The notes under the pieces were generated by a model. That model had not been told where the DNA came from. It ran no database searches and saw only the letters and a list, made by a program, of their open reading frames with translations. The translations under genes and the position numbers were made by a program. 64,000 nt of DNA, from contig JAIORK010000036.1 in assembly GCA_021108215.1 (NCBI GenBank), positions 22,948-86,947 on the forward strand, read 5' to 3'. Shown one piece after another: positions 2,779 through 24,277 of this stretch. This DNA comes from a bacterium (GTDB lineage: Bacteria; Oederibacteriota; JAAXVQ01; JAUVAV01). Position 1 is the first letter of the stretch. Each line of letters opens with the position of its first letter.

Positions 2779-2878
2779 AAGATTTTCCTTTCAAATCATT
2801 TTTCCGGCCGGGTGTCCAACACCATACCGAGCAACATGCATCGGCTTCCCAAAGCCGCGATATGTTGTTGCCTGCACC

Positions 2879-3367: not shown

Positions 3368-4213
3368 ATGTTAAAACGTTTTTTTCTTATTTCATTGATA
3401 GCTTTATTTTTGCTGCCGGCGCTTGTCCAGGCCAAAAACCTGGTCCGGATTGGTGAAAACGCGATTGTTACAGTCGAACTGGAGTTACAAGATGTGGTTG
3501 TCATCAATGGCGATGCCGAAATTTCCGGCCGCGTACTGGGCAACGTGATTGTCATTGGCGGCGACATTGTGCTCAATCCCTCAGCGTATGTCAGCGGCGA
3601 TGTGGTCTGTCTGGGCGGCATCCTCAAGAGCAGCACCGCAGCGATCATCAAAGGCTCCAAAGTGGAAATCGGCGGGAAAATCAGCTGGAAATCACTCCCT
3701 TATTTTTCTATCGCAAAGCTTATGTTCCTTAGCTTCTTATATAAAATCTCTACCGCCGTTATCCTGGTACTGCTGTGTGTATTTTTTGTACTGATGTGGC
3801 CCAATCAAATCCGCTATGCCGCGCAAGAGGCTTCCCACGATCTGGTCAAATCCATTCTGGTGGGGATTTTTGCAGTCGCGTTGCTGGTTCCCCTGGGGAT
3901 CGGATTTGCCATTACCTTATTCGGACTCCCCATCGCCTTTGCCATTTTGGTTTTTCTCCTGATTGCCAGCTGGTTTGGCATTGCCAGTATGGCCTATCTG
4001 GTCGGCACAAAAATCTCCAACCGTTTCTCGCCTTTGGTCGCGGTTATTTTTGGCCTGCTCATTCTTAAATTTGTTCATTTCGTCCCCTTCATCGGCTTCA
4101 TCCTTTACTTCATTGCCATTTTGCCCGGTCTGGGCGCGATTCTCCTGACGCGGTTCGGCACCAACCGGCCCTGGATGGGATCCAAAAACGAAAAATCCTC
4201 TAAAAAAAAATAG
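3368..4213 (+). CDS. Membrane protein with an N-terminal bactofilin-like beta-helix repeat domain and a C-terminal polytopic TM domain
   Basis: A signal peptide is followed by repeated V.G.V/I.G blocks (VVINGDAEISGRVLGNVIVIGGDIVLNPSAYVSGDVVCLGGIL) typical of the bactofilin/DUF583 fold. Four to five hydrophobic helices and a Lys-rich tail follow. A GGAG RBS is present. Confidence 0.5.
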   Translation: MLKRFFLISLIALFLLPALVQAKNLVRIGENAIVTVELELQDVVVINGDAEISGRVLGNVIVIGGDIVLNPSAYVSGDVVCLGGILKSSTAAIIKGSKVEIGGKISWKSLPYFSIAKLMFLSFLYKISTAVILVLLCVFFVLMWPNQIRYAAQEASHDLVKSILVGIFAVALLVPLGIGFAITLFGLPIAFAILVFLLIASWFGIASMAYLVGTKISNRFSPLVAVIFGLLILKFVHFVPFIGFILYFIAILPGLGAILLTRFGTNRPWMGSKNEKSSKKK

Positions 4214-4379
4214 GTCCATCACGGCTGTCATTTGCATATCAAAATCCCGGCATGGTTCCTAGACTGTCCCTTGCACAAATTTATTTTAATAACCGGCATT
4301 TCAAGTAACAAATTCTCCACCTCCCGGTGTTTCACCAATAGAAGCAACAATCACCATTTTAAATATAGGAGGCACTATC

Positions 4380-5162
4380 ATGAGAAAAAAACTATCTATT
4401 CTGGCATGGGTCATTCCCCTATTCCTGGCTATGCAGATTCAGGCTGAGACCATGCCAACCGCAGTGGGCACACCAAGTCCTGCAGCAGAACAATCCGTCA
4501 TTCCTGAAACAACACCCACACCTGAGCCCCAACCGGTTGTTTCCAAGCCGGCAATGCTGACTGAGAAAGAAACCGCCATGATTGAAAATCCAGAATCATC
4601 CTACAAAATCAACAGCCTGTTTGAAGGCCGCATCACCTCAAACGGCGGATACGGTACTGCGGGTTATAAACCCACCCGTATCGACGGAGAGACCGGACAC
4701 ATGATCGGCGGCCGGGGTGGCTGGATCATTAACCATTCACTCATGATCGGCGGTGCGGGCTATAACCTGGCCGATTCCCAGATCCAGCGTGAGTTTGACG
4801 GTGAGATGAAGAAGCTCCATTTTGGTTACGGCGGTATTGAGTTGGGGTACACTTTTTTCTCGGATCAGTTGATCCATCTTGTGGTGCACACTTTGTTTGC
4901 CGGTGGCGGTATCGGCACCCTGGACAAAGTTTATGCTGATGAAGACGAAGACGGTAATAAAAAACATACTTGGGAAGGTCCGGTAGATACGGTCTTTGTG
5001 GTCGAACCCATGATCTATGCCGAGCTAAATGTAACCGAATGGTTCCGGGTCTGCCTGGGCGGCGGTTACCGGCATGTAGAAGGCTGTGAGCTCAAGGGCG
5101 TGAGCAATCAAGACCTGAGCGGTGCTTCCGCCGAACTACTCTTCAAATTCGGATATTTTTAA
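4380..5162 (+). CDS. Secreted protein, possibly outer-membrane beta-barrel; function unknown
   Basis: It has a signal peptide (LFLAMQIQA), a Pro/Thr-rich linker, Gly/aromatic-rich strands and a C-terminal GYF aromatic terminus. An AGGAGG RBS is present. Confidence 0.45.
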   Translation: MRKKLSILAWVIPLFLAMQIQAETMPTAVGTPSPAAEQSVIPETTPTPEPQPVVSKPAMLTEKETAMIENPESSYKINSLFEGRITSNGGYGTAGYKPTRIDGETGHMIGGRGGWIINHSLMIGGAGYNLADSQIQREFDGEMKKLHFGYGGIELGYTFFSDQLIHLVVHTLFAGGGIGTLDKVYADEDEDGNKKHTWEGPVDTVFVVEPMIYAELNVTEWFRVCLGGGYRHVEGCELKGVSNQDLSGASAELLFKFGYF

Positions 5163-5183
5163 TCGTAAAAATCCACAGGCTTA

Positions 5184-5199
5184 CCCGGCATTCGCCGGG
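5184..5199. repeat. GC-rich hairpin motif CCCGGCATTCGCCGGG, copy 1 of a dispersed REP-like repeat
   Basis: The same 16-mer palindrome recurs at 44129-44144 and, reverse-complemented, at 7826-7838, always in intergenic DNA downstream of genes. Confidence 0.5.
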
Positions 5200-5770
5200 C
5201 AAGCTGCCCATTGTATTCGCGCCGGCACGATAAAAAAACAACAACAAGGCCAGGCAGGACATATCCCCGGCTTGGCCTTGTTATATTTCCAGTAAATAGG
5301 CCACCCGCAAGCCGGCACGATAAACATCCGCCCAATGGGATTGCTGTTTGGCTTCAGGTTAATGAAAATCCTGCCAACGGATATTCCGGTGTTTCACATA
5401 ATCATCCCAGACGATCCGCTTGTGCTGAAGTCCGGCTGCCTGAAAAAACATTTCCAATGCAGGTATGGTGAGCAGCGTAAGCATACTTAAGGATTTCCCT
5501 TTGGAATCTTTCGCGCTTTCCTGCAGACAATAATCCCGTTTCTGCGTTTGGGAGCATTATAGCACCAACCCAAACTTTTCTCTGCGTCTGTAAAATGATT
5601 TTTTCATCAGTCTTTCGCCGGCATTCTTTTTTCCGTCCCCGCGTTACCTGTATTCGGCATTTCTATAAAAATGCATTAATGGGTTGATTTTTCTTTGAAA
5701 TATGGTAAAACGTCTATTCTCACGATCTTATTTATCCAAGACACATTCTCAATAGCTGGAGGGCACAAAC

Positions 5771-7702
5771 ATGACAGAACCAACTGTAGAAAAACTTGAA
5801 TTCAAAACTGAGGTCAGCCAACTGCTTGATCTTGTGGTCCATTCCCTTTACTCGCACAAGGATATTTTTCTGCGCGAGCTCATTTCCAATGCCTCGGATG
5901 CGATTGACAAACTCCGTTATCAGGCTGTAACCCAGAGTGATCTTACGGGTGATGATGCTGACTGGAAAATAAAAATCAGCCTGGACAAAGAAAACAACAC
6001 ACTCACCCTTTCCGACAACGGCATCGGCATGAATCATGATGATCTGGTCAATAATCTCGGTACCATTGCCAAATCCGGCACCAAAGAGTTTTTGGCCACC
6101 TTACAGCAAAGCAAGGATAATGTTAATCTCATCGGTCAATTCGGCGTAGGCTTTTATGCCTCCTTCATGGTCGCTGACAAGGTCGAGGTGGTTTCCAAGC
6201 CACCCCAGGACCCGGCGCACCGCTGGGTCTCGGACGGCAAACAGGGCTTTGAGATCACGCCGGATGACAAATCCAAGCGCGGCACGGATATTATCCTTCA
6301 TCTCAATGAAGAAAACCGGACCTATCTGGAAGAATATGAAATCCGCTCTCTGGTTAAAAAATACTCTGATTTTGTCGAGTTCCCGATTTTAATGGATGTG
6401 GAACGTGAGGAAACCCCGCAAGATGCCGAGGGCAAACCGATCGAGAATGCCAAACCAGAGAAAAAAATCATCACCGAGACGCTCAACTCTATGAAAGCAA
6501 TCTGGGCCAAACAAAAAAAAGATGTCACCCCGGAAGAATATCATGAATTTTACCGGCATGTTTCCCATGATTTCACCGATCCTCTAGAAACCATTCATTA
6601 TCACGCTGAGGGAACCATTGAATTCAAAGCCCTCATTTATATTCCCAGTCAGGCACCTTTTGATCTTTTTATGCGCGATTCCCAAAAGGGCATCCAATTA
6701 TATATCAACCGGATTTTTATCATGAGTGATGCCAAAAAACTTATTCCAGCATACCTGCGCTTTCTCAGAGGGGTTGTGGATACCAGTGATCTGCCGCTGA
6801 ATGTCTCGCGCGAAATGATTCAGCAGGATGCCCAGTTGGAAAAAATCAGTAAAAATATTGTCAAGAAAACCCTGGCTACACTCAAAACCATGAAGGATAA
6901 GGATTTTGATAAATATCTGAAATTTTACAAAACCTTCGGCACGGCATTAAAAGAAGGCTTGCACTATGATCATGATAACCGGGAAGCCATTGCCGAACTG
7001 CTGCTTTTTGAGAGCACCAAAACCGAGCCGGGTCAGCTGCGTTCCCTTGATCAGTATTGTTCGGATATGCCGTCTGAACAAACCGCCATCTATTATCATA
7101 CTGCCGAGGACCGGGCATTGGCACTCGCTTCGCCCTATCTGGAAACTTTCCAATCCAAAAATTGGGAAGTCCTGCTCATGTTGGAAGCCATTGATGAAAT
7201 TGTTCTGCCTGATCTTTTTGAATACAAGAAAAAACCGGTCAAACCGATCAATCGCGGGGATGTTGATTTAAGCAGCGAAGAAAAAGAAAAAGCCGAGGCA
7301 GCTCAAAAAAAAGCCAATGAAACCTATAAAGATCTACTCGCTTATATACAGAAAAAACTTGAAAATAATATCAAAGAAGTCCGTTTTTCAAAATTACTCA
7401 AAGACAGCCCGGCCTGCCTGGCATTGGATGATGCCGGCATGACCCGCCAAATGCAGGAACTCTTTAAAGCCATGGGCAAAGAGTCGCCTGAACAAAAAAA
7501 CATTCTGGAACTCAATCCCAATCATAAGGTTGTAGAAACCATGAACACGCTTTTCCAGGAAAACCAAGCCTCAGAAAAATTATCCGACTATGTCTCTTTG
7601 ATCTACGATCAGTCGCTGCTTACCGCCGGGTTCAAGGTCAAAGATCCCCTGGCATTTTCAAAAAGGCTGACACAATTGATGGTGGGACCAACCGCTTCCT
7701 AA
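5771..7702 (+). CDS. htpG: Molecular chaperone HtpG (Hsp90)
   Basis: The Bergerat ATP-binding motifs are present (LRELISNASDAIDKLRY, GQFGVGFYS). It is 643 aa with a GGAGG RBS. Confidence 0.95.
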   Translation: MTEPTVEKLEFKTEVSQLLDLVVHSLYSHKDIFLRELISNASDAIDKLRYQAVTQSDLTGDDADWKIKISLDKENNTLTLSDNGIGMNHDDLVNNLGTIAKSGTKEFLATLQQSKDNVNLIGQFGVGFYASFMVADKVEVVSKPPQDPAHRWVSDGKQGFEITPDDKSKRGTDIILHLNEENRTYLEEYEIRSLVKKYSDFVEFPILMDVEREETPQDAEGKPIENAKPEKKIITETLNSMKAIWAKQKKDVTPEEYHEFYRHVSHDFTDPLETIHYHAEGTIEFKALIYIPSQAPFDLFMRDSQKGIQLYINRIFIMSDAKKLIPAYLRFLRGVVDTSDLPLNVSREMIQQDAQLEKISKNIVKKTLATLKTMKDKDFDKYLKFYKTFGTALKEGLHYDHDNREAIAELLLFESTKTEPGQLRSLDQYCSDMPSEQTAIYYHTAEDRALALASPYLETFQSKNWEVLLMLEAIDEIVLPDLFEYKKKPVKPINRGDVDLSSEEKEKAEAAQKKANETYKDLLAYIQKKLENNIKEVRFSKLLKDSPACLALDDAGMTRQMQELFKAMGKESPEQKNILELNPNHKVVETMNTLFQENQASEKLSDYVSLIYDQSLLTAGFKVKDPLAFSKRLTQLMVGPTAS

Positions 7703-7705
7703 AAA

Positions 7706-7738
7706 ATCGCTTGGGCGGGATTTCCCCGCCCAAGCGAT
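7706..7738 (+). terminator. Perfect 13/14-bp stem-loop immediately after the htpG stop
   Basis: The sequence is atcgcttgggcggg-atttc-cccgcccaagcgat. There is no clear U-tract, so its terminator function is only putative. Confidence 0.4.
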
Positions 7739-7788
7739 CACCTTGCCAAAACATCCTGTTCAACATGTAAAGAAATCCCCGCACTCTT

Positions 7789-7847
7789 GCCCGGCGGACT
7801 TGCCCAGCTTGCCCTGCGTATGCGGGGGCGAATGCCGGGTGCCGGGT
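7789..7847. repeat. REP-like GC-rich dispersed repeat (rearranged copy)
   Basis: Its reverse complement shares the blocks cccggcattcgcc, caagtccgccgg and tacgcagggc with the element at 44129-44175. Confidence 0.45.
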
Positions 7848-7864
7848 CAAAACAAATGACCCTA

Positions 7865-8563
7865 CTAAAATTTCTGTTCCTCAGCCCCGTACCAGGTTTT
7901 GCCGGTCTCGCCAAACGGTTTAGCCAGTAATTCCAGAATCCGAACAGCGCCGTCAACCGGCTCGCCGGGCGCATTGGAACCACCCATATCAGTTTTAAGC
8001 CATCCCGGGTCCAGACTGTTGACCGCCACTTTACCCTGGAGTGCAGTGGCCCACATCATGGTCAATCCGTTCAAAGCGTATTTACTCAAACGATAGCTAA
8101 TCATATCTTTTTCCGTCTGCACCGCTTTTTTGGTTCCGGCACCGGACGAAACATTAATAATCCGGGGTTCCTGACCTTTTTCCAGCCAAGGCAGCAATGT
8201 CCTTATCATCTGCTGAGGACTGTACAAGTTGGTCCACATGGTTTTCTCCATGATTTCCAGGGTATCTTCCTTCGGATGAAGCGTATAGGTCATCACACCG
8301 GCATTATTAATCAGCACATCCAGGCTTCCCCAGTTTTCTTCGACCCAGCTTGCCGCTGCCTGGGCAGCATCAGGATTGCACACGTCGAGGACCAATCCCT
8401 GAAAATCCCCTTTCTCTTCGAGCAAAGCAGCGGTGACTGCCATGCGCTCCTTATCGCGCGAGATCCCCAAAAGGCGGACACCCTTTTCCAATAATAACTT
8501 CGCCGTCTCCCGCCCGATACCACGCGAAACACCGGTTAAAATAATTTTTTTATTTTTGAGCAT
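7865..8563 (-). CDS. SDR family oxidoreductase
   Basis: It has the N-terminal TGxxxGIG dinucleotide-binding motif (ILTGVSRGIGRETAKLL) and a YxxxK context (YRLSKYAL). Confidence 0.8.
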   Translation of the reverse strand: MLKNKKIILTGVSRGIGRETAKLLLEKGVRLLGISRDKERMAVTAALLEEKGDFQGLVLDVCNPDAAQAAASWVEENWGSLDVLINNAGVMTYTLHPKEDTLEIMEKTMWTNLYSPQQMIRTLLPWLEKGQEPRIINVSSGAGTKKAVQTEKDMISYRLSKYALNGLTMMWATALQGKVAVNSLDPGWLKTDMGGSNAPGEPVDGAVRILELLAKPFGETGKTWYGAEEQKF

Positions 8564-8606
8564 AATACCGCCTCACAAAAAAAACATATACTATTTTAAT
8601 GATTAT

Positions 8607-9167
8607 TCAACTCCAAACGATGTTCCATCTCCATTCCTGAGGATTGCCCTCATCAAGACTAACCCGAATATTTTTCAGCCCTAAAATATCTCCCATGCCA
8701 AAAAGATAACCAGTCATATACACGCGCATGTTGGCGTCATAGCCCGGAAAATCACGCAGAACAAAGACCGCCGTGTTTTTTCCCTCACTCTCGATTGAAG
8801 CCTCACCTTCCCGATAAAAACTATGCCATAATTGCGCCACCCGCTTGAAAATAAATTGCGGCGTAGGAATCCGAATAAAAATTTGATAAAACCGGGGCAA
8901 CCCTTCCTTGGCCATTATTTTTCCTGTCTCCCAGAGTGCTTTTTGCAGGTTCCCGGGAAAAAGGACTTTACAGCCTTCATATAAAAATGTTCCCTCATAT
9001 GCCAGTTCCGTCTCAATCCAGGAAATCGCCAGTGTCGTGGATTCCCATATTTTCAATGCTTCCGGCGAAAGATTTTTTTCGAGCTGTTTTATTGCCTCCG
9101 GCCCTTTGTCTTCAATCAATTTTTTAAGTATAATTAATCCGGTTCCTTTAATTTTTGTCATCGTCAT
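8607..9167 (-). CDS. Hypothetical protein (possibly DUF2378-like)
   Basis: It is a 186-aa ORF with coding-like composition. No catalytic motif was recognised. Confidence 0.4.
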   Translation of the reverse strand: MTMTKIKGTGLIILKKLIEDKGPEAIKQLEKNLSPEALKIWESTTLAISWIETELAYEGTFLYEGCKVLFPGNLQKALWETGKIMAKEGLPRFYQIFIRIPTPQFIFKRVAQLWHSFYREGEASIESEGKNTAVFVLRDFPGYDANMRVYMTGYLFGMGDILGLKNIRVSLDEGNPQEWRWNIVWS

Positions 9168-9306
9168 CTCCTGAGTGTGGGGGCCTGCCGCTTCATTTCA
9201 ACCGGTACTGAAGCAGACATTAGAACTATTCCCTGATAAATTCTGTATAATTTAAGTTTATGAGGGATAAAAGTGCTTTGTCAAGCGCCATATCCCCTCC
9301 CCGGCT

Positions 9307-9513
9307 TCAGACCTTTTGAGTCCGGTTATTTCTCATGATACCGGCGATGGAAAAAATGACTAAAACAATTGCAAGTACTGTCCCCGGGGTGATCACCTCC
9401 CCCAGAATAATCCATCCTAAAAAAACTGCGATGACTGGATTAACATAGGTATTGGTGGTAACCAGCTTGTATTTAAAAATGCCCGACCAATATCTTGATA
9501 CCAATACCTGCAA
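9307..9513 (-). pseudogene. 3' remnant of an EamA/DMT-family transporter gene
   Basis: The 68-aa ORF encodes only the last two TM helices of an EamA domain (NPVIAVFLGWIILGEVIT...). It overlaps the 3' end of mntP and has no upstream continuation. Confidence 0.3.
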
Positions 9514-10030
9514 GAATCAACCCTCCCAATATTTCCATGCGTTTCCCCAAAGCCAAACCAAACCGGCAACCAATTTCCAATCCCACCACAGTCATCCCTG
9601 CCGCAACCAAACCAATCAATCCGGCCGGCCAAAAAATGGGTGTCTCAAGTACTGAAAACCCAATTCCAACAACCAAAGCATCAATGCTGGTTGCAATAGC
9701 CAAAGTTAATAAAATCCAACCCTTGGTTGGATCGCCAGATTTCCGCTTTCTATCCGCACCTTGCATACTATCCCAAATCATATGCAACCCCACCAGCAAC
9801 AGCAATATACAAGCAATCCAATGAGATATATCCCTGAAATATCCTACAAATACAGACGCAGCCTTCCAACCGATCACCGACATAGTAAACTGAAAAAATC
9901 CGAACGCCCCTGCCATTCTCATGGTTTGTGTTAAGTTCGGCCGGCATAATTTCACACCCGTGGCGATAGCTACTGCAAAGGCATCCATGCCTAAACCCAC
10001 AGCTACACCTAAAAGCATCCAAAATGACAT
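9473..10030 (-). CDS. mntP: Manganese efflux pump MntP
   Basis: It shows the DUF204 duplicated-domain pattern, with GMDAFAVAIATG and a second SIDALVVGIGFS motif. It is 185 aa with six TM helices. Confidence 0.8.
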   Translation of the reverse strand: MSFWMLLGVAVGLGMDAFAVAIATGVKLCRPNLTQTMRMAGAFGFFQFTMSVIGWKAASVFVGYFRDISHWIACILLLLVGLHMIWDSMQGADRKRKSGDPTKGWILLTLAIATSIDALVVGIGFSVLETPIFWPAGLIGLVAAGMTVVGLEIGCRFGLALGKRMEILGGLILAGIGIKILVGHF

Positions 10031-10065
10031 ATGATATCCCTCTTTGATGAAAATCCGTGTAACAT

Positions 10066-10101
10066 TTCAAAAAAAAACGGCCCCCTTTAAGGGGGCCGTT
10101 T
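10066..10101 (-). terminator. Rho-independent terminator of cspA copy 1 (bidirectional in form)
   Basis: The element is an A-run, then cggccccc-tttaa-gggggccg, then ttt. On the minus strand the stem is followed by a U9 tract, 35 nt after the csp stop. Confidence 0.7.
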
Positions 10102-10135
10102 CAATCATTGGCAAAATTGAATATACTTGTTAAAG

Positions 10136-10345
10136 TTAGCCGATTTTGCGAACGTTGGCTGCCTGGGCGCCTTTCGGTCCCTGGACAATGTCGAATTCAA
10201 CTTCGTCGCCTTCGTTCAGGTTACGGAAGCCGTCACCCTGGATGGCTGAAAAATGTACAAATACATCTTCACCGCCATCGTTCTGTTCCAAAAAACCATA
10301 ACCTTTTGTTCCATTAAACCATTTTGTCTTACCTTGAACTGACAT
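10136..10345 (-). CDS. cspA: Cold-shock protein (CspA family)
   Basis: RNP1/RNP2 motifs are present ([20 protein letters not shown]). The start was set at MSVQG, which has a GGAGG RBS. Confidence 0.9.
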
Positions 10346-10530
10346 GAATCTTGTTCCTCCAAAATTTTCAATACCCATTTTTTGCCTTAGCAAAGAAGGG
10401 GGTTCACCTTACCATTGCGTGGTAAACCTGTCAAATAAATTATCGGTTATTATAAATAAATAATAAAGCGCTTTTTTATTCCCACTGACGCCCTGGTCAA
10501 ATTTACAATCCATTCCTATTTAATGCTACT

Positions 10531-14266: not shown

Positions 14267-16906
14267 TTATTTAACAATGCTAACTTTGATAGTCCCCTTC
14301 ACGCTCCCTTGCACAATAACACGCGCCATATAGACACCGGGCGCAACATCTTTGCAGTCCCAGTCCAGGCTTTGGCCCGGACCCTCCGGTAAATTTTCCT
14401 GCAGTACCGCCACGCGCTCACCGATCAAATTATAGAGCATAATCTCAACCTGGGCAGCTTGCTCCAAATGGAGCACAAAGCGCATCTCTGATTTGGCTGG
14501 ATTGGGAAATGCCAACGCCGGCCGGCCGCCCAGGTCGACATTGAGCAAAGGATTGTCCGGTGTCACGGTTGCGGTTGGCGTTACGGTCAAAGTGGGTGAG
14601 ACGGTTTGGGTCAATGTAATAGTTCCGGTCAGGGTAATGGTGGGTGTCACGGTTGCGGTAAAAGTGATGGTCCGGGTAGGTGTCGCGGTTGCGGTCGGCG
14701 GTCCAATCACAACCACATCCGTTGCAAACGAGGATGTATTGTTACTGCTGTCCGTGGCCAAAGCGGAAACCGTCTCTCCGCCAACCAGACCGGACGGCGT
14801 GAGGCTCCAGTTGCCCGAGCCATCGGCCGTGGTCCTGCCGACCAGGGAAATGCTCCCTCCCGGATTTCCGCCCGCTTCAGCCAGGAAAACCTCGATGTAA
14901 TCATTATTCCCCGCGGTTCCGGAAATCAGGGTGCTGGAGGCAGCCGTAATCACAGGCGGTATTTTATCCGTATTGCCGCCCGCGGACAACAGAATCGCAT
15001 CATGGCCTATCGCTGTGATGGTATTGGCAAACAAACCGTTTTGAATTGCATTGGAATTTAAAATACTAATTCCATAATTCATGCCGGTAAAAATATTTCC
15101 CGAACCGGTATGCTGAATACCAAAAAAATTGCCCTGCCCGTTCGAAATACGGACACCGGTACCCATGGTCAATCCAGTGGCCGTGCCGTCTGGCATGCAA
15201 TTAAGCCAGTTCTGGCATATGGTATTGTTGTCCGCTCCGTCATACAGTTCAAATCCGTAGTTTAAACAGTAAATATAGTTGCGGTCTTCAGGCAGCAGTC
15301 CGCCAATCACGTTATCGATCGCGACGCGAAGCTGGAAACCGTTAAAATTCTCGATTACGCTGCTACGGTCAAGACTCAACCCGATATCATTTCCCAGTAT
15401 ATAATTGCCAACCGCAAGTTCCAGAAAAACCGCATTCAAACTATTGCCGGAAATGATATTGCGGTAGATGGGATCCGGACCGCCGATATAATTGTTGGTG
15501 GCATTCGCGTAATATAAGCGGAGGCCGTGATAATTGGGAATCGCGGCATTTCCGGCCAGATTAAGGCCGATAATGTTTCCGATCACAGTATTTCCCTGGC
15601 AGTCGTAAATGAGCACACCCGCGTTTCCCGTACCACTGCTGCCTGAAATCAAATTGCCCCGCATCTGGCCGGCTGACAAATTGGGTCCGCCGACCAGATT
15701 ATTATCACCGGTTATCCATACCCCGCACTGGTCGCTGATGGCTGCCGCGTCACCGGCCCAGTTGGTGCCGATCAAATTGCCGCTTACCGTATTGCCCGAT
15801 CCTTGCAGCCGGATATTGTATTGGCTGCCGGATATCAGATTGCGTTCCTTATATGCTGCATTCAAATGACCGCCGATCGCGAAAGAAAACCCATACAGAT
15901 CAAGACCGTAACTGGAATTATTGGTAATCTGGTTGTTCTGGATAATATAATGATGCGAGGTTGTGGCAGTGTTATAAATGCCGCGGTCATTGGCCGCAAT
16001 GGTATTGCCATAACCGTCTACAGGCAAACCGATCCAGTTGTTATTGGAATAATTGCCGATACCAATCCCGGCAAAGGAGTGGCCCAAAGGTGTGGCCATA
16101 TCACTGCCCAGACCGATCACATTGCCGCAGACACTGTTGCCCGAGGTTGCCGCATAGGTGAAACGCAGACCCGAGTTGCTGTTGCCGGATATCAGGTTGC
16201 CCTCATTGGCATACCAGCTCCCACCGATCATATTATTTTCACATTGATCACCAAACTCCACGCCAACTAAATTAGGCCGGGCCAAAAGCCCGGAGCTGTC
16301 GGTCCCAATATAATTATTCTGGATTTTCATACTGCTGCAGTGACCAACATATATGCCATAATGGGTATTACTGGATATAATGTTGCGGTCACTGATATTG
16401 GGTGTGCCGATCACTGCATTCGTACTGCCCAAAATGTAAAGACCGTCGCGATTTGGCCGGCTTACATCTGTCCAGTCAAGACCGATCCTGCATCCGGTAA
16501 TTGAAATATTGTCGGCATTAACGGAGCGGATTGCCTGATACGCATCCACCAACGCTACATTTCTGAATTGCGTATTATCACTGGTTATGGCAATCAAAAA
16601 CATATACGTATTACTCTCCTGCGCCGGATAGTACCCGATCACCACGTCATTACTCTCCCCATCAATAATTAATTCATTATTAATCCATATTGCGCTGAAA
16701 ACCGTGATGGAATTGGAATTGCCGCTGGCGCCCGGCCCAAAGGTAATGGTATCACCTGCCGTGGCATCCAGAACCGCCTGGCGCAACGTCCCCGCACCGC
16801 TGTCCTCGCGGCTGGTGACTTGAATGGTAGCAGCTTGCGCAAGTGTCGCCATACCGCATAAAATAATAACTGCAATATACCTGACCCCTAAATATCTTTT
16901 CACCAT
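14267..16906 (-). CDS. Secreted right-handed parallel beta-helix repeat protein with a Thr/Pro linker and a T9SS type-A C-terminal sorting domain
   Basis: A signal peptide is followed by tens of beta-helix repeats (NN.I..N...G....G..), then the linker PTATATPTRTITFTATVTPTITLTGTITLT. The C-terminal ~80 aa (FPNPAKSEMRFVLHL...ARVIVQGSVKGTIKVSIVK) has the Por/T9SS sorting-domain pattern. Confidence 0.6.
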   Translation of the reverse strand: MVKRYLGVRYIAVIILCGMATLAQAATIQVTSREDSGAGTLRQAVLDATAGDTITFGPGASGNSNSITVFSAIWINNELIIDGESNDVVIGYYPAQESNTYMFLIAITSDNTQFRNVALVDAYQAIRSVNADNISITGCRIGLDWTDVSRPNRDGLYILGSTNAVIGTPNISDRNIISSNTHYGIYVGHCSSMKIQNNYIGTDSSGLLARPNLVGVEFGDQCENNMIGGSWYANEGNLISGNSNSGLRFTYAATSGNSVCGNVIGLGSDMATPLGHSFAGIGIGNYSNNNWIGLPVDGYGNTIAANDRGIYNTATTSHHYIIQNNQITNNSSYGLDLYGFSFAIGGHLNAAYKERNLISGSQYNIRLQGSGNTVSGNLIGTNWAGDAAAISDQCGVWITGDNNLVGGPNLSAGQMRGNLISGSSGTGNAGVLIYDCQGNTVIGNIIGLNLAGNAAIPNYHGLRLYYANATNNYIGGPDPIYRNIISGNSLNAVFLELAVGNYILGNDIGLSLDRSSVIENFNGFQLRVAIDNVIGGLLPEDRNYIYCLNYGFELYDGADNNTICQNWLNCMPDGTATGLTMGTGVRISNGQGNFFGIQHTGSGNIFTGMNYGISILNSNAIQNGLFANTITAIGHDAILLSAGGNTDKIPPVITAASSTLISGTAGNNDYIEVFLAEAGGNPGGSISLVGRTTADGSGNWSLTPSGLVGGETVSALATDSSNNTSSFATDVVVIGPPTATATPTRTITFTATVTPTITLTGTITLTQTVSPTLTVTPTATVTPDNPLLNVDLGGRPALAFPNPAKSEMRFVLHLEQAAQVEIMLYNLIGERVAVLQENLPEGPGQSLDWDCKDVAPGVYMARVIVQGSVKGTIKVSIVK

Positions 16907-17246: not shown

Positions 17247-17450
17247 ATGGTACAAGGTAAAGTAAAGTGGTTTAATGATGCAAAAGGATTCGGTTTCTTG
17301 GAGCGCGAAGGCGGCAGTGATGTATTTGTTCATTTCTCAGCTCTCAAAGGCGACGGATTCAAAAGTTTGGCTGAAGGTGAAGCAGTAGAATTTGATGTCG
17401 TTGACGGTCCCAAAGGCCCTCAGGCATCCAATGTTTCCAAACTTGGCTAA
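17247..17450 (+). CDS. cspA: Cold-shock protein (CspA family), second copy
   Basis: The 67-aa product has [12 protein letters not shown] and VFVHFSAL. An AGGAGG RBS is present. Confidence 0.9.
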
Positions 17451-17485: not shown

Positions 17486-17524
17486 TTAAAAACCCCCGTA
17501 CCTTTTGGTGCGGGGGTTTTTAAT
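17486..17524 (+). terminator. Rho-independent terminator of cspA copy 2
   Basis: The element is aaaaacccccgtacc-ttt-ggtgcgggggttttt. It marks the left edge of the AT-rich island. Confidence 0.8.
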
Positions 17525-17597
17525 TTGGGGTAGCGCTACCCTACTGCTCCCCATTAACAAAAGAAGAGTAGTATAAAAGCTCTTTATTTTCCTACTA

Positions 17598-18320
17598 CTA
17601 ATAGCACTCATAGTACGGTGGCTTTTTGGGTGTTGGATATATTTTAGCCGAATAGTGTATGTTTTTTATCTTGTCACGAAATTTGTTTTGCAAAATAATA
17701 TTATTTCTAATTGCTGAAATATACTTATCCAGCGCTATTACTAAATCAACCTTTAAGGCATTAATTGATATCGGCAACCAATATCCAGCATAGTTATTCA
17801 AATGCGTTATTTCTCCGGCAGAATGAACTTGCACTATTTGGAAGTGTTTAACATCAAGCCTTTTTTCAAATATTATTTTGCCATCATTATCTGCTATTTG
17901 GAAATTGTGGCTGTAACTATTTCGTTCACCGTCTTCATCAGAAAATACCAACCACTTTAATATCGCTTTTTTACTTTCGAGATCTATTAATAGATTTTGT
18001 GGATGAAATCTATGACACAATCCATGTCGATACATGTAATAAAACCATTTAACTTCCTGGTCTTTGTAAATACTTGTGTCAAAATAATTACGAATAAATC
18101 CTAACTCAACATCCTCACCATCTTTCCCGAAGGGTCTTTGACCATGAAGATATTCACTCAATTCCAGCACATAACTAAAAAACATCAATGGAATAGTAAA
18201 CTCTCCTATCCCTGCTTTTAGAAGAGCACCCATTTCTAAGAGGATCGAGTTTTTATAATCTTTATCCAAATATTCGATTATCTGGTCACTGCTAACATTT
18301 TTAAATAATTTCCAAGACAT
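17598..18320 (-). CDS. Hypothetical protein of 240 aa in the AT-rich island
   Basis: It sits downstream of and co-oriented with the 777-aa gene, with a 32-bp gap. It has coding periodicity and no recognised motif. Confidence 0.5.
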   Translation of the reverse strand: MSWKLFKNVSSDQIIEYLDKDYKNSILLEMGALLKAGIGEFTIPLMFFSYVLELSEYLHGQRPFGKDGEDVELGFIRNYFDTSIYKDQEVKWFYYMYRHGLCHRFHPQNLLIDLESKKAILKWLVFSDEDGERNSYSHNFQIADNDGKIIFEKRLDVKHFQIVQVHSAGEITHLNNYAGYWLPISINALKVDLVIALDKYISAIRNNIILQNKFRDKIKNIHYSAKIYPTPKKPPYYECY

Positions 18321-18352
18321 ACCTCATCTCCATTTTAGACCACTTATTGATT

Positions 18353-20686
18353 TTATTTAATCGGATGTTTAGAAAGAATTTGTCGTGCTAATTCTTCTCC
18401 GTCATTTGGGCCTGGAAATCCACCTCTTTCCCGTAATCGTTCTTCAAGTTGTTTTTGTCTAAGTAAAATATGTTTTTGTACATTTTTCCATTGTTCTTCT
18501 GTGAAAACCTTCGGTTTTGTTTTAATTTCTTCGTCAACCTTGTTTGCCATATGTGTATTGTTTTTTGCACGCATTACTAATTGAATAGCATAAAAATGTG
18601 CATATATATCACCAATTGCGTAATCATCAGGATTTTTAGAAATTTCGCAATATGATTCCAGGATTGAGCGTATATTTGAAATACATAAGAGTAATACATC
18701 TTGCCACCACTCTCGGGTATAAAATAAAAGGCCTATGTACACCATAGAATCACATGCAATATCAGTCCATTCTTTAAATATGCTCTTCTTTCTATCAAAA
18801 GCAACCCAGTAAAATGACAAAATCCACGTGAATTTATCAACTAATTCTTTCACATCATTTTGGTTAGATCGTAGTGGATTATCTAATATCTGACACACAA
18901 CTTTAGCAATATGCTTAATTAGCTCATTAATCTCCCAAATAAGAAAACTATCTCCAAACTCATTTTTTTCTGCAACATTGCGCAAGTGCCGTGCAATGAT
19001 GTCTGTCATGTCTATTAATTCGTAATATGGATTTGTCGCATCTCGTTCAGGATCTACTTTCGGAAATATAGTTGCAGCCATAGCGAATAAATTCCCGAGT
19101 GAAGTTTGTTCGACAAGACTATATGCCTTTGTAAACGGATGATTCATTGATAGTCTTCCTTGAAGAGTTTCACTAATTATTGCAAAGGGCGCTAAATTTC
19201 CAAGTTTTTGAAAAACTTGGCCAAGTACTTCTTTGAAGTAATAATCTTTATTCCGAAGCATATGGTCAAGGATGATAAAATACTGTTTAATAACTTCTTC
19301 TGCTAATACAGGATTGCGGTTAATATAGAAGTACTGAGCAATTTCTGATATTCCATTTATAACTGGCAAGTGAATGTCTGAGTCATCAACATCCTTCGGA
19401 GTACATTTAATAATTCCAGAAAGCATGCCGCTCGTCTGAAACGGCACCTCATCAAGCCCTTTTGTTTGGGCAATCCTCACGCATGACAACATGTAGTTAA
19501 TTGGTTTCATAGACAATGGTGCAGTGTTCGGCCGGTATTTTCTTGCTCCTAAATTTGCTGTGTGGATAGTAATTTTCTTGTATGCTTCAGAAACACTTAA
19601 AGCTGCGGATTCATCATTTTGTGATATAGCAATACGGCTAATTTCATTTAACATTTCATAGGAACAGCCTGTAACTGCTTCTACATCAGATTGGGAAGTT
19701 AACAGCAATGTATCTGGGCAGGGCAAAATTAGTAAATTTAGCTTTCTTGCAGATAAATAATACATAGTCAAATGAGCAATCGCATACACAGCCGATTTCG
19801 TTAATAGTTTCTCATTTCGAGAAATAGCTTTTACTGCGATCTCAGATAAATCATTAATCCAACTATTGATAGTTTGGGGATAGCCGAACACTTGAGGATA
19901 ATAAATCGTTTCTATATCCTCAATTACCACTCCCTGCTTTTTTTCTTCCGGGAGTAATTTATAATGAAGTCTTGCTGATCGATTAACTGTCTTTTTTATA
20001 CGATCAATTGTTCTCATTGCTTGCTTGAGAGCAAGATTTGTTGAATAAGTTGGATCTAACAGCTTGCATATATGACGATGATACAAGCGTAGCAGATCAA
20101 GACTAAATCCCAGAGTTAATATAGCAACAGCTAATTTCAAGTTTTCTGAAACTCCAGCGAATCCACCCGCAGAAAAAGCAAAGCACGCTATACACAATAT
20201 CGCAAGAGCTACAAACGATGCATTTGTAATTAAGTCTCTCCGATAAAGACGGACAATTGAAGATGACCAAGCTTCTGCTGCACGTTGTATTGGTATAATT
20301 GATAGGGTTAATACAAGTGCCAGAATTGTTCCGTACGTGGCACCAAGTTGAATGAGCATTTTATCTATTGATTGCGTTGTGTTTAATGCTGTTCGCAAAG
20401 GCGGATAACCCAGAATAAATGATGCTATTATAAGGCCAATAATACCTATCATAATCTTGCTTGTTTTCAAAAGCAACCCACGACTAAACGAAGTAATATA
20501 AAACCATAAACGAACAACTTTTATTGTCAAATACGTTTTTATTCGCGTTATTATAGTTTTCAATCCATCACGTAGCGACATAATCATTCGTTTGAAATAT
20601 TTCACTAGTTTTGGCCACCATAGTATTACGTTTGTTGACCATAAATTGCGAATTTTAAAGTATGATTTGTTTTTATTTTGGTTCAT
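18353..20686 (-). CDS. Hypothetical polytopic membrane protein of 777 aa in the AT-rich island
   Basis: The N-terminal ~230 aa contain about six predicted TM helices. The remaining ~540 aa form a helical cytoplasmic region. No recognised catalytic motif was found. Confidence 0.5.
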   Translation of the reverse strand: MNQNKNKSYFKIRNLWSTNVILWWPKLVKYFKRMIMSLRDGLKTIITRIKTYLTIKVVRLWFYITSFSRGLLLKTSKIMIGIIGLIIASFILGYPPLRTALNTTQSIDKMLIQLGATYGTILALVLTLSIIPIQRAAEAWSSSIVRLYRRDLITNASFVALAILCIACFAFSAGGFAGVSENLKLAVAILTLGFSLDLLRLYHRHICKLLDPTYSTNLALKQAMRTIDRIKKTVNRSARLHYKLLPEEKKQGVVIEDIETIYYPQVFGYPQTINSWINDLSEIAVKAISRNEKLLTKSAVYAIAHLTMYYLSARKLNLLILPCPDTLLLTSQSDVEAVTGCSYEMLNEISRIAISQNDESAALSVSEAYKKITIHTANLGARKYRPNTAPLSMKPINYMLSCVRIAQTKGLDEVPFQTSGMLSGIIKCTPKDVDDSDIHLPVINGISEIAQYFYINRNPVLAEEVIKQYFIILDHMLRNKDYYFKEVLGQVFQKLGNLAPFAIISETLQGRLSMNHPFTKAYSLVEQTSLGNLFAMAATIFPKVDPERDATNPYYELIDMTDIIARHLRNVAEKNEFGDSFLIWEINELIKHIAKVVCQILDNPLRSNQNDVKELVDKFTWILSFYWVAFDRKKSIFKEWTDIACDSMVYIGLLFYTREWWQDVLLLCISNIRSILESYCEISKNPDDYAIGDIYAHFYAIQLVMRAKNNTHMANKVDEEIKTKPKVFTEEQWKNVQKHILLRQKQLEERLRERGGFPGPNDGEELARQILSKHPIK

Positions 20687-20788
20687 ATAATCCTCTGAAT
20701 CTATTTTCCTGTCAGCGAAATATAGGGCATTATCGTCAACTTTTAGCGGAATAGCAATTCAAAATATATTACACCGTAAATAGCACCG

Positions 20789-20983
20789 TTATTTTATACA
20801 TGACTGTTTCTTTATGGCTTTTACTACCAAATCACTGATTTCTTGCATTATCTCTGGATCGTATTGGATAAAATCAAGTCTACCGCTGCTTTTATCTTGG
20901 TTTTCTTTTACTACTTCTCGATCCATACGTTCAGTTATGATTTGGAAGACCTTTATATCACCCCGTGCCGCTTGTTTGATCAT
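20789..20983 (-). CDS. Small hypothetical ORF (64 aa)
   Basis: The open frame extends upstream without an alternative start. There is no RBS, so this call is weak. Confidence 0.2.
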   Translation of the reverse strand: MIKQAARGDIKVFQIITERMDREVVKENQDKSSGRLDFIQYDPEIMQEISDLVVKAIKKQSCIK

Positions 20984-21121
20984 GGCGCCTGCAACCTTTT
21001 CCTGGCTGATACTGCCAGTCTCAAACTGTTCCTTGATAACAACATTCCAGTGACTGACTCCACACTTGGCACCGCAGGGATTTCCGCTTTGTCCCTTTCT
21101 TCTAATTAATTCTTTATAAAC

Positions 21122-21152
21122 AAAAAAGAGCCTCCCTTTCGGGAGGCTCTTA
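21122..21152 (-). terminator. Terminator of the XRE regulator gene
   Basis: On the minus strand gagcctccc-gaaa-gggaggctc is followed by a T6 run. Confidence 0.6.
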
Positions 21153-21359
21153 AAGATTCATTAGGTCCTTTAATTTAATCCCCAGCCCATGAGCTATCTT
21201 AGCTAGAGTGGTGAATTGCGGGTCCACAAGACCTTTTTCGATCTTACTTAGGTTGCCTTTGGACATGCCGTTTTCATAAGCTAGGTGTTCCAGGGTAATC
21301 CCCTTCTCCTTCCTTAGCTTATGTATCCTCATGCCCAGTTTTTCGGTTAATTGGCTCAT
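21150..21359 (-). CDS. XRE-family (Cro/C1-type) HTH transcriptional regulator
   Basis: The 69-aa product has the HTH motif (ITLEHLAYENGMSKGNLSKIEKG). Confidence 0.75.
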   Translation of the reverse strand: MSQLTEKLGMRIHKLRKEKGITLEHLAYENGMSKGNLSKIEKGLVDPQFTTLAKIAHGLGIKLKDLMNL

Positions 21360-21647: not shown

Positions 21648-22214
21648 CTATTTACTCTGCATTGCTAATAGCTCCGCCTTTTTTCCCTCCATCGGGGCTG
21701 AAATATGTATTCGTGATTTTTCTTTTTTACGCTTCTGGCCTCCCTGGTTTAATTTCGAGAGGTTTTCAGATATAAATCTATCAATATTCTCTTTAGCTTC
21801 CACATGAAAGCGAGCCACTCCGTTTTTAATATCCACATCTTTACCAGCCATGTGTATCAATTGATCAAGATACATTTTTACTTTAAATGCATGATATTTA
21901 ATCAAATCAACAATTTTTACCGAAGGCTGGCGAAAACCAATTTCCAAGTGAAGCCCAAGGACGCTTGCATAATTCAATAGATCACCAACAGCGATATCTT
22001 TGTCATAAGAGGATTCGATTTTGGATATTTTCCCCTGGGAACAACCAACTTTTTTCGCCAGTTTGGTCTGCGTGAGTTGGTGTTTGCAACGCAACATGAG
22101 CAGGAATTTGGAAATCATCCGGTTTTCGATTTCATACGCTACGCTTTTCTTGAATTCCTCATCCGTTGAAAGCCCTTCCATCATTTTCATAACATTTTCA
22201 TATTTTTTCGCCAT
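21648..22214 (-). CDS. HTH-XRE domain protein, putative HigA-like antitoxin
   Basis: It has a central HTH (LTQTKLAKKVGCSQGKISKIES). Its start overlaps the stop of the upstream RelE-like gene in an ATGA arrangement. Confidence 0.55.
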   Translation of the reverse strand: MAKKYENVMKMMEGLSTDEEFKKSVAYEIENRMISKFLLMLRCKHQLTQTKLAKKVGCSQGKISKIESSYDKDIAVGDLLNYASVLGLHLEIGFRQPSVKIVDLIKYHAFKVKMYLDQLIHMAGKDVDIKNGVARFHVEAKENIDRFISENLSKLNQGGQKRKKEKSRIHISAPMEGKKAELLAMQSK

Positions 22215-22585
22215 TATTGTCCCCCCTGTTTCATACCCTTTACCTTTTTCTTGTATTCCTCAATATCCCTACTCTGGGACCTCTTATCCCCTATTCCTAA
22301 AAGCACAACCCTCTTTTCCTTTACGTCGGAATAGATATAAAGCCGTGTTTCCTGGAGCTTCTTTCTTATTCCTCCACATCTTTGGTCAATCGCTTTGATG
22401 CCCATGGGTTCCGGATAGACAAACCCCACCTGGACCAACGAAGGCGACCCACACTCACACAAAGTCCTAAAATACGTGTCCAGGTTGTTCAAAACGCACT
22501 TTAATTCATCTTTGTGCTTTTTTTGATAGTGCTTGTGGTCCCTCTCGAAGGATTGCGTCGGTTGGAGATGCCATGGTTCCATCAT
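22214..22585 (-). CDS. RelE/ParE-superfamily toxin (HigB-like gene order)
   Basis: The C-terminal signature ETRLYIYSDVKEKRVVLLGIGDKRSQSRDIEEY parallels RelE (RLVYRVDDE..V.VISVGKRERSEVY). The gene is translationally coupled to the downstream HTH gene. Confidence 0.6.
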   Translation of the reverse strand: MMEPWHLQPTQSFERDHKHYQKKHKDELKCVLNNLDTYFRTLCECGSPSLVQVGFVYPEPMGIKAIDQRCGGIRKKLQETRLYIYSDVKEKRVVLLGIGDKRSQSRDIEEYKKKVKGMKQGGQ

Positions 22586-23034: not shown

Positions 23035-23403
23035 CTATTTTCCTGCTTCCTTTTTATCCAAACCCCTCACCAGTCCGTTGATCATTTTGCAAATTTCATT
23101 AAGATTTTCGTTCAAGTCTAGACAGTTATCTGAATTTATTAATTGTTTGCGTTTACATACTTCAATAATCGGTATACATTCCTGAGCAGATCCTCTAGCA
23201 ATCCAAAAGAACTGTTTGCGTTCTTTTGGATGCCATCTACCGTTTCCTTCTGCCAAATTAGCCGATATGGATAGCGCTGCCCGATTGAGCTGATCAATAA
23301 GGTAATAGTTGCCTTTCGGAAATGTGTCGGTAAGTTTAGATGTCTTTTCTGCAACATCGACCGCTTTTTGGTAAACTTCCAATTTCTCAAACATGAAAGA
23401 CAT
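23035..23403 (-). CDS. Four-helix-bundle protein (TIGR02436 / 23S rRNA intervening-sequence protein family)
   Basis: It has the family pattern MFEKLEVYQKAVDVAEKTSKLTDTFPKG...LIDQLNRAALSISANLAEG...ARGSAQE. Confidence 0.8.
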   Translation of the reverse strand: MSFMFEKLEVYQKAVDVAEKTSKLTDTFPKGNYYLIDQLNRAALSISANLAEGNGRWHPKERKQFFWIARGSAQECIPIIEVCKRKQLINSDNCLDLNENLNEICKMINGLVRGLDKKEAGK

Positions 23404-23602: not shown

Positions 23603-23677
23603 TGGTAGCGCTACGGGGAATCGAACCCCGGCTTGATGACTGAGAATCATCCGTCCTAGCCGCTAGACGATAGCGCC
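23603..23677 (-). tRNA. tRNA-Glu(CUC)
   Basis: The sequence GGCGCTATCGTCTAGCGGCTAGGACGGATGATTCTCAGTCATCAAGCCGGGGTTCGATTCCCCGTAGCGCTACCA folds as a cloverleaf with a TTCTCAG anticodon loop and an encoded CCA. Its D-arm matches the E. coli tRNA-Glu arm. A perfect hairpin terminator lies directly downstream. Confidence 0.85.
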
Positions 23678-24160
23678 ATGAGCGAAGCGAATAGCTCTGC
23701 TGTTCTGCTGCTCTGATTTCAATAAATATGTACAAGCCAATTCCAACAACTTAAAAATATGATCAGCGGACCAGCCGATAGCAGACCGCTGGTTCGCTTT
23801 TTCCTGCTGTTCTGCTGCTCTGATGCTCACCTGCTCTGCAATTTCGCTTTTTCGAAATTGCGAACCCCGGCTTGATGACTGAGAATCATCCGTCCTAGCC
23901 GCTAGACGATAGCGCCATGAGCGAAGCGAATAGCTCTGCTGTTCTGCTGCTCTGATTTCAATAAATATGTACAAGCCAATTCCAACAACTTAAAAATATG
24001 ATCAGCGGACCAGCCGATAGCAGACCGCTGGTTCGCTTTTTCCTGCTGTTCTGCTGCTCTGATGCTCACCTGCTCTGCAATTTCGCTTTTTCGAAATTGC
24101 GAACCCCGGCTTGATGACTGAGAATCATCCGTCGTCTTGCGCAGCAAGACAGCTCTGCTG
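23622..24160. repeat. Tandem repeat of 239-bp period (2.25 copies); copies 2 and 3 carry truncated tRNA-Glu pseudo-copies
   Basis: Units begin at 23622, 23861 and 24100 with cgaaccccggcttgatgactgagaatcatccgtcctagccgctagacgatagcgcc.... Only copy 1 retains the acceptor 3' strand. In the other copies a gcaatttcg-cttttt-cgaaattgc hairpin replaces it. Confidence 0.8.
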
Positions 24161-24252
24161 TTCTGCTGTTCTGCTGTTCTGCTGTTCTGCTGTTCTGCTG
24201 TTCTGCTGTTCCGCTGTTCTGATGCTCTGCTGTTCTGATGTTCTGCTGCTCT
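24157..24252. repeat. Octanucleotide microsatellite (GCTGTTCT)n
   Basis: There are about seven perfect and five degenerate units. The AEQQNSRT-repeat ORFs predicted here are translation artefacts. Confidence 0.8.
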
Positions 24253-24277
24253 GCCACTCTTTCTCACTACGAAAGAG

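Follow-up and report, generated by a model that had tools for sequence, protein, structure and literature searches.

DUF2254 (PF10011 / IPR018723) is a family of membrane proteins for which the literature found covers only a predicted knot topology, with nothing on function; its C-terminal half has been discussed as knotted (PMC11184937). In the stretch of DNA analyzed here, a 64,000-nt segment of bacterial contig JAIORK010000036.1 (the window), a module of this type was recognized in the product of one gene, geneA, which lies directly upstream of a second gene, geneB. The N-terminal four-transmembrane (TM) module of DUF2254 and the cytoplasmic loop that follows it have homologous counterparts in the geneA family. 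They differ in that geneA is predicted to carry an α-solenoid of ~570 aa in place of the C-terminal half of the profile, which roughly doubles the length. The initial annotation of the window had described two co-directional open reading frames (ORFs) of 777 and 240 aa, 32 bp apart, and these were confirmed in the ORF list at the following positions.

18353..20686, minus strand: geneA, 777 aa, ATG start
17598..18320, minus strand: geneB, 240 aa, ATG start

Kiwa is described as a membrane-embedded KwaA–KwaB complex that senses phage-induced membrane changes (PMC11785009). As in Kiwa, a membrane protein with a small TM bundle (KwaA; geneA) is encoded directly upstream of a soluble protein (KwaB; geneB), and the setting is that of defense islands. 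Kiwa is therefore a plausible functional parallel to a membrane-anchored sensor. Nevertheless, geneA carries a large cytoplasmic domain of its own, and the pairing of geneA with geneB is not conserved, whereas KwaA–KwaB is described as a complex (PMC11785009). A further difference is that neither geneA nor geneB gave a significant match in PADLOC-DB v2.0.0, where 37 geneA-family and 47 geneB-family members returned isolated single-member matches with E values of at least 0.00095. This database is assumed to include the Kiwa, Zorya, Borvo and PDC candidate models.

Lambda RexB is the four-TM channel of RexAB, and TM effectors of the CBASS and Thoeris type are likewise membrane-acting. By analogy, geneA would be an inner-membrane helical bundle on mobile DNA for which loss of membrane integrity on an infection cue is proposed. 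No homology to these proteins is known, and geneA would differ in joining sensor and effector in one 777-aa chain. Unlike in CBASS/Thoeris and RexAB, no signaling-nucleotide or partner gene is conserved beside geneA.

The closest comparison for geneB is with HEPN ribonucleases (RNases), in which helix 3 ends with an Rx4-6H motif, the arginine is followed by a polar residue (N, D or H), and helix 2 contains an acidic residue (PMC3710099). The geneB family resembles the HEPN proteins of Abi, toxin–antitoxin and CRISPR-associated systems in having R-x4-H with a polar H or N after the arginine, placed at a helix end and followed by a loop (PMC3710099). The difference is a β-sheet of ~75 residues inserted after the motif in geneB.

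We read geneA as a stand-alone, membrane-anchored candidate defense protein and geneB as an independently mobile accessory gene, and we place about half of our confidence in this account. For the defense role of geneA itself, genomic association provides the argument and brings the chances to roughly even. Two independently mobile genes would recently have become neighbors and would be transcribed together within the cargo of a degraded island of 6.1 kb. The functional core would be geneA, a single-gene inner-membrane protein directed against phages or mobile genetic elements, of the abortive-infection or exclusion type. Its four-helix membrane module would be coupled to the solenoid through a conserved cytoplasmic loop and a juxtamembrane segment (PIQRA...LYRRD and DLLRxYHxHxC). 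The solenoid would bind an invader-derived cue or component, and the membrane module would then compromise membrane integrity or block entry. This division into sensor and effector is put forward with less certainty than the defense role. geneB would be a separate conflict or accessory gene captured beside geneA in this lineage, perhaps a HEPN-like protein that may have RNase activity.

If geneA is a defense gene, a function would be assigned to one branch of the large uncharacterized DUF2254 membrane-protein superfamily, and a single-chain "membrane module plus solenoid" would join the few membrane-acting anti-phage proteins now known. Compact and encoded by a single gene, the family occurs in the cultivable genera Ensifer, Polaromonas and Thiobacillus, so it is directly testable. 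It is one candidate among many, and the case is one of guilt by association. The locus also cautions that tight operonic spacing within an island is not proof of a functional pair unless it is checked across homologs.

Genomic context of the geneA family

The searches yielded 103 other full-length geneA homologs (32–56% identity), distributed patchily over Beta-, Gamma- and Alphaproteobacteria and Omnitrophota and low in GC. Recognized defense genes were present within 6–7 kb in nine of 15 informative contexts, a small sample counted by hand, and two further contexts are mobile-element cargo zones. The neighborhoods, by locus, are the following.

L003 and L014: Type III restriction–modification (R-M), PDC-S13 (Bro-N) and PDC-M32A
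L008: a Type I hsdR-M-S set that ends 7 bp upstream and, downstream, a 243-aa gene with weak similarity to HEPN_Apea
L009: fragment of a Type III methylase (methyltransferase) also found in L003
L010 and L012: NACHT protein of 1,321–1,381 aa
L011: serine recombinase and TIR protein
L020: smpB-adjacent, with nSTAND3 and Type ISP
L030: Type ISP, HigB/helix–turn–helix (HTH) and Gp49/HTH_37 (two toxin–antitoxin pairs), insertion sequence (IS) elements, DUF2971, methyltransferase and PLD endonuclease
L031: PDC-S05, DUF2971 and IS elements
L032 (Ensifer megaplasmid, 25% identity): Borvo BovA, E 2.5e-112
L017–L019: lone opposite-strand cargo gene within an integrative and conjugative element (ICE; TraG, SLT, DUF2859, DUF3275)
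L005, L015 and L016: solitary insertion between a two-component system and a Mur ligase
L004 and L007: housekeeping neighbors
L006: unannotated neighbors

The geneA family is strongly associated with defense islands and mobile elements. Single-gene behavior is supported by the lone insertion between housekeeping genes in L005, L015 and L016 and by the lone opposite-strand gene of the ICE. Profile searches found no conserved metabolic, regulatory or other partner beside geneA homologs. The initial annotation had held that clear homology to a known transporter, or to a sensor with a metabolic partner, would speak against a defense-type cassette; geneA showed no homology to transporters or metabolic sensors.

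Two of the contigs share ~10.2 kb (22-10140) containing Type III R-M, PDC-S13, the geneA homolog and PDC-M32A, with 100% identical ORF translations; the comparison was made on translations. They are binned to metagenome-assembled genomes (MAGs) of different families, Polaromonas (WLB) for L003 and Pseudohongiellaceae (ELB) for L014. Either a mobile defense island was transferred very recently or the identity is a binning artefact. As a separate observation, DUF2971-family genes, faint or weak by Pfam, adjoin geneA homologs in the unrelated contigs L030 (9288-10373) and L031 (9670-10731), one in the same orientation as the geneA homolog, the other on the opposite strand.

Adjacency of geneA and geneB was found elsewhere only on contig L001, from a very close relative. 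There the C-terminus of geneA is 86% identical at the amino acid level and is followed by geneB at 85% identity (89% nt). DNA homology between the window and L001 stops 21 nt past the geneB stop codon, and the next gene in L001 is unrelated. This third co-directional gene (L001:1594-2256; 220 aa, low GC) has no Pfam or PADLOC match and no counterpart in the window. Across 17 other geneA-homolog loci (L003–L020), profile searches detected no ORF of the geneB family, and across nine geneB-family loci (L021–L029) they detected none of the geneA family. No homology was detected between geneB and the downstream neighbors of geneA homologs by phmmer, hhalign or local hmmsearch. Co-occurrence of the two families across divergent genomes, as expected of an obligate two-gene system, was not observed. 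Thus, of the proposed defense-type cassette, the defense context was borne out by the islands of the geneA family elsewhere, while the conserved two-gene pairing was not. Recurrence in L001 alone comes close to the two genes never co-occurring outside this genome, an outcome that had also been named as evidence against a cassette. The A–B pairing is not conserved, and geneB is probably a chance neighbor of geneA rather than an obligate partner.

Both genes are genuine. Compared with the L001 orthologs (89% nt identity), geneB has a ratio of nonsynonymous to synonymous substitution rates (dN/dS) of 0.13, and the C-terminus of geneA one of 0.32. One copy of each family is present in the window. 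The expression signals around the pair are listed here.

18321..18352, minus strand: 32-bp spacer between geneA and geneB, holding the geneB Shine–Dalgarno sequence GGAG (sequence, terminator scan)
20687..20757, minus strand: two overlapping matches to a sigma-70-like promoter, immediately upstream of geneA (consensus scan, 9/12 each; weak)
21126..21151, minus strand: strong intrinsic terminator, 11-bp stem and T-run, after a 69-aa HTH gene (terminator scan, sequence)

Each gene has its own Shine–Dalgarno sequence (AGAGGA before geneA, GGAG before geneB) and the terminator scan found no terminator-like site between them, so co-transcription of geneA and geneB is probable. Sigma-70-like sites are no commoner in this region than expected from shuffled sequence. 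The terminator divides the 69-aa HTH gene from the geneA transcription unit. Control of geneA by this upstream HTH protein was considered and rejected because of the intervening terminator and because HTH genes are not conserved beside geneA homologs.

An alternative is that the locus encodes a true two-component system, in the form first proposed or in a modular one, with geneA as a conserved membrane-embedded sensor or anchor and a downstream soluble effector, geneB here, that is swapped elsewhere for others, several of them HEPN-like. Such a system would account for the short gap, the separate ribosome-binding sites, the lack of a terminator and the joint inheritance in L001. It would also account for the geneB motif, since an invariant R-[H/N]-x3-H at a helix end, with an upstream acidic helix-2 residue in most members, fits the HEPN description (PMC3710099). 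Furthermore, R-N-x3-H was found near the C-terminus of three unrelated co-directional genes immediately downstream of geneA homologs, in a Gammaproteobacteria MAG (L008), an Omnitrophota MAG (L011) and a metagenome contig (L030).

L008:8245-8976: 243 aa, RNDYAH; Pfam HEPN_Apea E 0.009, PADLOC Cas13-ApeA E 0.002
L011:8243-9484: 413 aa, RNELVH; overlaps the stop codon of the geneA homolog
L030:9288-10373: 361 aa, RNQDAH

With geneB counted, a motif of this type occurs in four of ~7 plausible downstream partners, against a background frequency of ~0.064 per 240 aa for R-N-x3-H. PDB sequence and profile searches with three neighbor proteins gave nothing. Against a two-component system, the motif is missing from the downstream genes of L003 (PDC-M32A) and L020, and the observation was made post hoc with a motif whose HEPN carriers are common in defense islands anyway. 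Many geneA homologs have no plausible partner (the singleton between the two-component system and Mur ligase, the ICE cargo gene, L004, L006 and L009). The reciprocal searches across geneA and geneB loci were negative, and geneB has no fold or profile match to HEPN. We regard this alternative as rather unlikely. A broader form of it would make geneA the hub of an undescribed modular defense system with an interchangeable, usually HEPN-type RNase effector (geneB and the L008, L011 and L030 proteins), in which a membrane or entry cue, perceived by the DUF2254-type module and the solenoid, licenses RNA cleavage. This is judged improbable because HEPN proteins are common in defense islands and many geneA homologs are partnerless.

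Several points weigh against geneA being a stand-alone defense protein with geneB as an accessory. No homology of geneA or geneB to any validated defense protein was found, the sample of contexts is small, and four contexts (L004; L005, L015 and L016; L006; L007) have housekeeping or unannotated neighbors only. The solenoid is evenly conserved (0.55–0.70) with no hypervariable, sensor-like patch. A true two-gene system would likewise show the 32-bp spacing, the likely co-transcription and the transfer of both genes together at 89% nt identity. In all three closest geneB relatives a tightly spaced co-directional gene lies upstream, and it was identified in one only. Because P0107 (51% identical to geneB; 21 residues of its upstream gene visible) and P0108 (41% identical) both have such a gene, the A–B pairing may be confined to a small sub-clade. 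Two metagenome scans for the contig of P0108 gave no match. Finally, IMG/VR and INPHARED contain no member of the geneA family, which is neutral with regard to defense.

Another alternative is that defense is not involved at all and that geneA is an accessory physiological membrane protein on mobile DNA, acting in envelope or stress sensing, as a scaffold or as a DUF2254-type ion or solute channel, with geneB an unrelated hypothetical protein. DUF2254 modules are widespread and have no function assigned to them, some geneA homologs sit among housekeeping genes, and geneA has neither a recognizable catalytic or toxin domain nor a diversifying region in its solenoid. On the other hand, defense genes lie in nine of the 15 neighborhoods, with hsdS, BovA, NACHT and TIR genes directly adjoining. 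The family has a patchy taxonomic distribution and anomalous GC, the islands are tRNA- and smpB-adjacent or ICE cargo zones, and the search for a conserved metabolic or regulatory partner was negative. An explanation outside defense is considered unlikely. An origin of geneA as a prophage gene was rejected because the geneA family is missing from IMG/VR and INPHARED and geneB from phages and plasmids.

Predicted architecture of geneA

The initial annotation had predicted about six N-terminal TM helices followed by a cytoplasmic helical region of ~540 aa. Hydropathy and the structural model both gave four TM helices instead. A Kyte–Doolittle scan located the hydrophobic segments at ~aa 78-97, 111-134, 156-179 and 183-201. 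The helical cytoplasmic region was retained as a predicted solenoid, with its length revised to ~570 aa. The features of the protein are as follows.

20084..20455, minus strand: TM module, four helices, aa 78-201 (Kyte–Doolittle, AlphaFold2 helices, Pfam stretch)
18356..20050, minus strand: cytoplasmic region, aa 213-777, with linker helices, a small β-hairpin and an ARM/HEAT-like α-solenoid (model secondary structure)
20234..20326, minus strand: most conserved stretch, aa ~121-151, end of TM2 and cytoplasmic loop, LSIIPIQRAxExWSxSIxRLYRRD (alignment conservation)

By the positive-inside rule the topology is predicted to be N-in/C-in, and this charge distribution places the C-terminal region in the cytoplasm. 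The AlphaFold2 model, built from a 37-sequence alignment, is all-α, with a predicted local distance difference test (pLDDT) score of 85 and a predicted template-modeling score (pTM) of 0.78. geneA is thus modeled as an inner-membrane protein consisting of a DUF2254-type 4-TM module and a cytoplasmic α-solenoid.

The full geneA sequence matched PF10011 with 16.6 bits (E 0.0037), under the 28.8-bit gathering cut-off, aa 102-274 being aligned to profile positions 40-209 of 368. A match at E ≤ 0.01 was obtained for 27 of the 37 aligned family members (best E 4.4e-13), always covering profile positions ~40-209, and ~40% of geneA homologs carry a precomputed PF10011 flag. These matches indicate homology between the TM module and the N-terminal half of DUF2254. 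The protein is not a full-length DUF2254 member, as the C-terminal half of the profile is unmatched and the α-solenoid is predicted there instead.

Mean majority-residue conservation reaches 0.87 at aa ~121-151, where the alignment has invariant and near-invariant columns, compared with 0.55–0.70 elsewhere. The segment after TM4, DLLRxYHxHxCxLLDP, is also highly conserved in the family.

Remote homology searches, which the initial annotation had proposed for both proteins, gave a DUF2254-type module and generic repeats for geneA and no known family for geneB. Foldseek comparison of the geneA model with the PDB returned only generic designed-repeat, ARM and HEAT matches (TM-score < 0.25), and a PDB sequence and profile search with the geneA family found no relative. 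No catalytic or toxin domain was recognizable in geneA by library scans, PDB sequence search or Foldseek. Pfam, NCBIfam, PHROGs and PADLOC scans of both proteins gave nothing beyond the sub-threshold DUF2254 match. Among defense-island membrane proteins, geneA is a new architectural variant in which a DUF2254-type TM module is predicted to be joined to an α-solenoid.

The geneB family and its HEPN-like motif

geneB is a predicted soluble protein of a sparse family of 200–240 aa, with two close and ~46 remote relatives. When 1.8 billion representative proteins were searched with a profile, 49 proteins of ~200–240 aa matched, and conservation was counted in an alignment of 47 sequences. No recognizable motif had been reported for the 240-aa protein at first. 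That description holds for databases, where no family was matched, but the family alignment itself revealed an invariant R98-x4-H103...P107.

17997..18032, minus strand: geneB family signature, aa 97-108, Y-R-H-G-L-C-H-R-F-H-P-Q (47-sequence alignment)

The consensus of this signature is [YW]-R-[HN]-G-[LT]-[VI]-H-x-[YF]-x-P-K. R98, H103 and P107 are invariant in 47/47 sequences, position 99 is H in 44/47 and N in 3/47, and G39, Y85, H99, G100, W123, H159 and D192 are near-invariant. The family therefore shows the Rx4-6H arrangement with a polar residue after the arginine that is described for HEPN proteins. An upstream acidic residue, D52 in helix 2, is found in 37 of the 47 members, while the clade of geneB itself lacks the family's D52 and R45 and has L52/E53.

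The geneB model, built from three sequences, is of moderate confidence (pLDDT 70.5). Four helices at the N-terminus are followed by a six-strand sheet and then by two helices at the C-terminus. The predicted position of the motif is the C-terminal end of the helix spanning residues 87-102, ahead of a low-confidence or disordered loop. Searches with this model and with the family did not recover a HEPN relative. Pfam, NCBIfam and PADLOC HEPN models matched none of the 47 members, which have no Pfam family in common. The PDB profile search with the family gave noise only, as did Foldseek comparison of the model with the PDB, where no HEPN structure appeared. Foldseek against BFVD returned one weak match, an uncharacterized Arthrobacter phage protein (TM-score 0.42). 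The family was absent from the phages and plasmids searched, and one of its members is encoded within a Type I R-M locus. The assignment of geneB as a HEPN-like RNase, suggested by the motif, is a tentative lead rather than a finding, and we lean somewhat against it. If it is correct, the geneB family would represent a divergent candidate HEPN-like enzyme unseen by current profile libraries.

The possible RNase motif also bears on whether geneA and geneB form a toxin–antitoxin-like addiction pair that stabilizes the island, with one product acting as a toxin, by membrane damage or as an RNase, and the other neutralizing it. The two genes are tightly linked, and the island already contains a RelE/ParE-like and HTH pair and a further HTH gene. 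Nevertheless, 777 and 240 aa are atypical sizes for a type II toxin–antitoxin system and neither gene matches any toxin–antitoxin family. Each family occurs alone in other genomes, which is incompatible with an obligate toxin–antidote dependence. An addiction pair is considered very improbable.

The tRNA-linked island and its surroundings

The two genes lie in a low-GC block at ~17–23 kb of the window, with 33–39% GC compared with ~47% in the flanks. An 11-mer at the 3' end of a tRNA-Glu gene, GGTAGCGCTAC (23604-23614), is repeated exactly at 17529-17539, with 0 such repeats expected in shuffles. The block is a tRNA-linked genomic island of 6.1 kb, flanked by GGTAGCGCTAC direct repeats and marked by a compositional shift; its integration site is the tRNA-Glu 3' end. 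Both genes were horizontally acquired. The pair covers 3.09 kb, half of the island, and is its largest cargo, as had been claimed at the outset. The description of the setting as laterally acquired also stood, and the pair has toxin–antitoxin-like and HTH neighbors. No integrase or recombinase was found among the island ORFs (ORF list, library scans), and the island appears degraded. Its ends and remaining cargo are as follows.

17529..17539, plus strand: distal att-like copy of the tRNA-Glu 3' end (GGTAGCGCTAC; exact 11-mer repeat), coinciding with the GC shift
20789-20983, minus strand: 64-aa ORF or decayed gene (ORF list, library scans)
21150-21359, minus strand: 69-aa HTH gene (ORF list, library scans)
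21648-22214, minus strand: 188-aa HTH protein, member of a toxin–antitoxin-like pair (ORF list, library scans)
22214-22585, minus strand: 123-aa weakly RelE/ParE-like protein, paired with the 188-aa HTH protein (library scans)
23035-23403, minus strand: 122-aa four-helix-bundle protein, 23S-rRNA-IVP/Avd-like (library scans)
23603..23677, minus strand: tRNA-Glu(CUC) (ARAGORN; Rfam tRNA, 58.5 bits), with its 3' end, 23604-23614, as the proximal att-like repeat

The distal repeat forms the island edge, 59 bp past the geneB stop codon. A search for structured RNAs in the island gave two tRNAs only. Upstream of the 64-aa ORF, its frame runs on for 47 more codons without a start codon (20789-21124, minus strand) and includes RRKGQSGNPCGAKCG; the region is probably a decayed gene. 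The stretch with RRKGQSGNPCGAKCG seems similar to the N-terminal part of DUF5681-type mobile-element proteins; a phage tblastn search gave no match.

Next to the island, a perfect 239-bp tandem duplication (2.14 copies) occupies 23622-24133 of the window. Each copy opens with the 5' 56 nt of tRNA-Glu and its upstream region, leaving two truncated tRNA-Glu copies upstream of the intact gene. Repeated integration or recombination at tRNA-Glu may have left the duplication as a scar, or it may be an assembly artefact. Between these repeats and a tRNA-Gln gene lies an 8-nt microsatellite, TCTGCTGT, of ~12 units with degenerate edges (24154-24260), which yields spurious ORFs with 'AEQQNSR' repeats.

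On the other side, two cold-shock-domain (CSD) genes are found 7 kb apart, at 10136-10393 (minus strand) and 17247-17450 (plus strand). The second ends in a bidirectional terminator-like hairpin at ~17490-17520, recognized by eye and not listed by the terminator scan, which began at 17400; it abuts the distal att-like repeat. Just outside the island, an 879-aa secreted β-helix protein (NosD/Beta_helix) with a type IX secretion system (T9SS) C-terminal sorting domain is encoded at 14267-16906 on the minus strand; this domain may be a clue to the lineage of the host. Further low-GC patches in the window, at 55001-56000 (0.37) and 48001-50000 (0.41–0.42), may be additional acquired segments.

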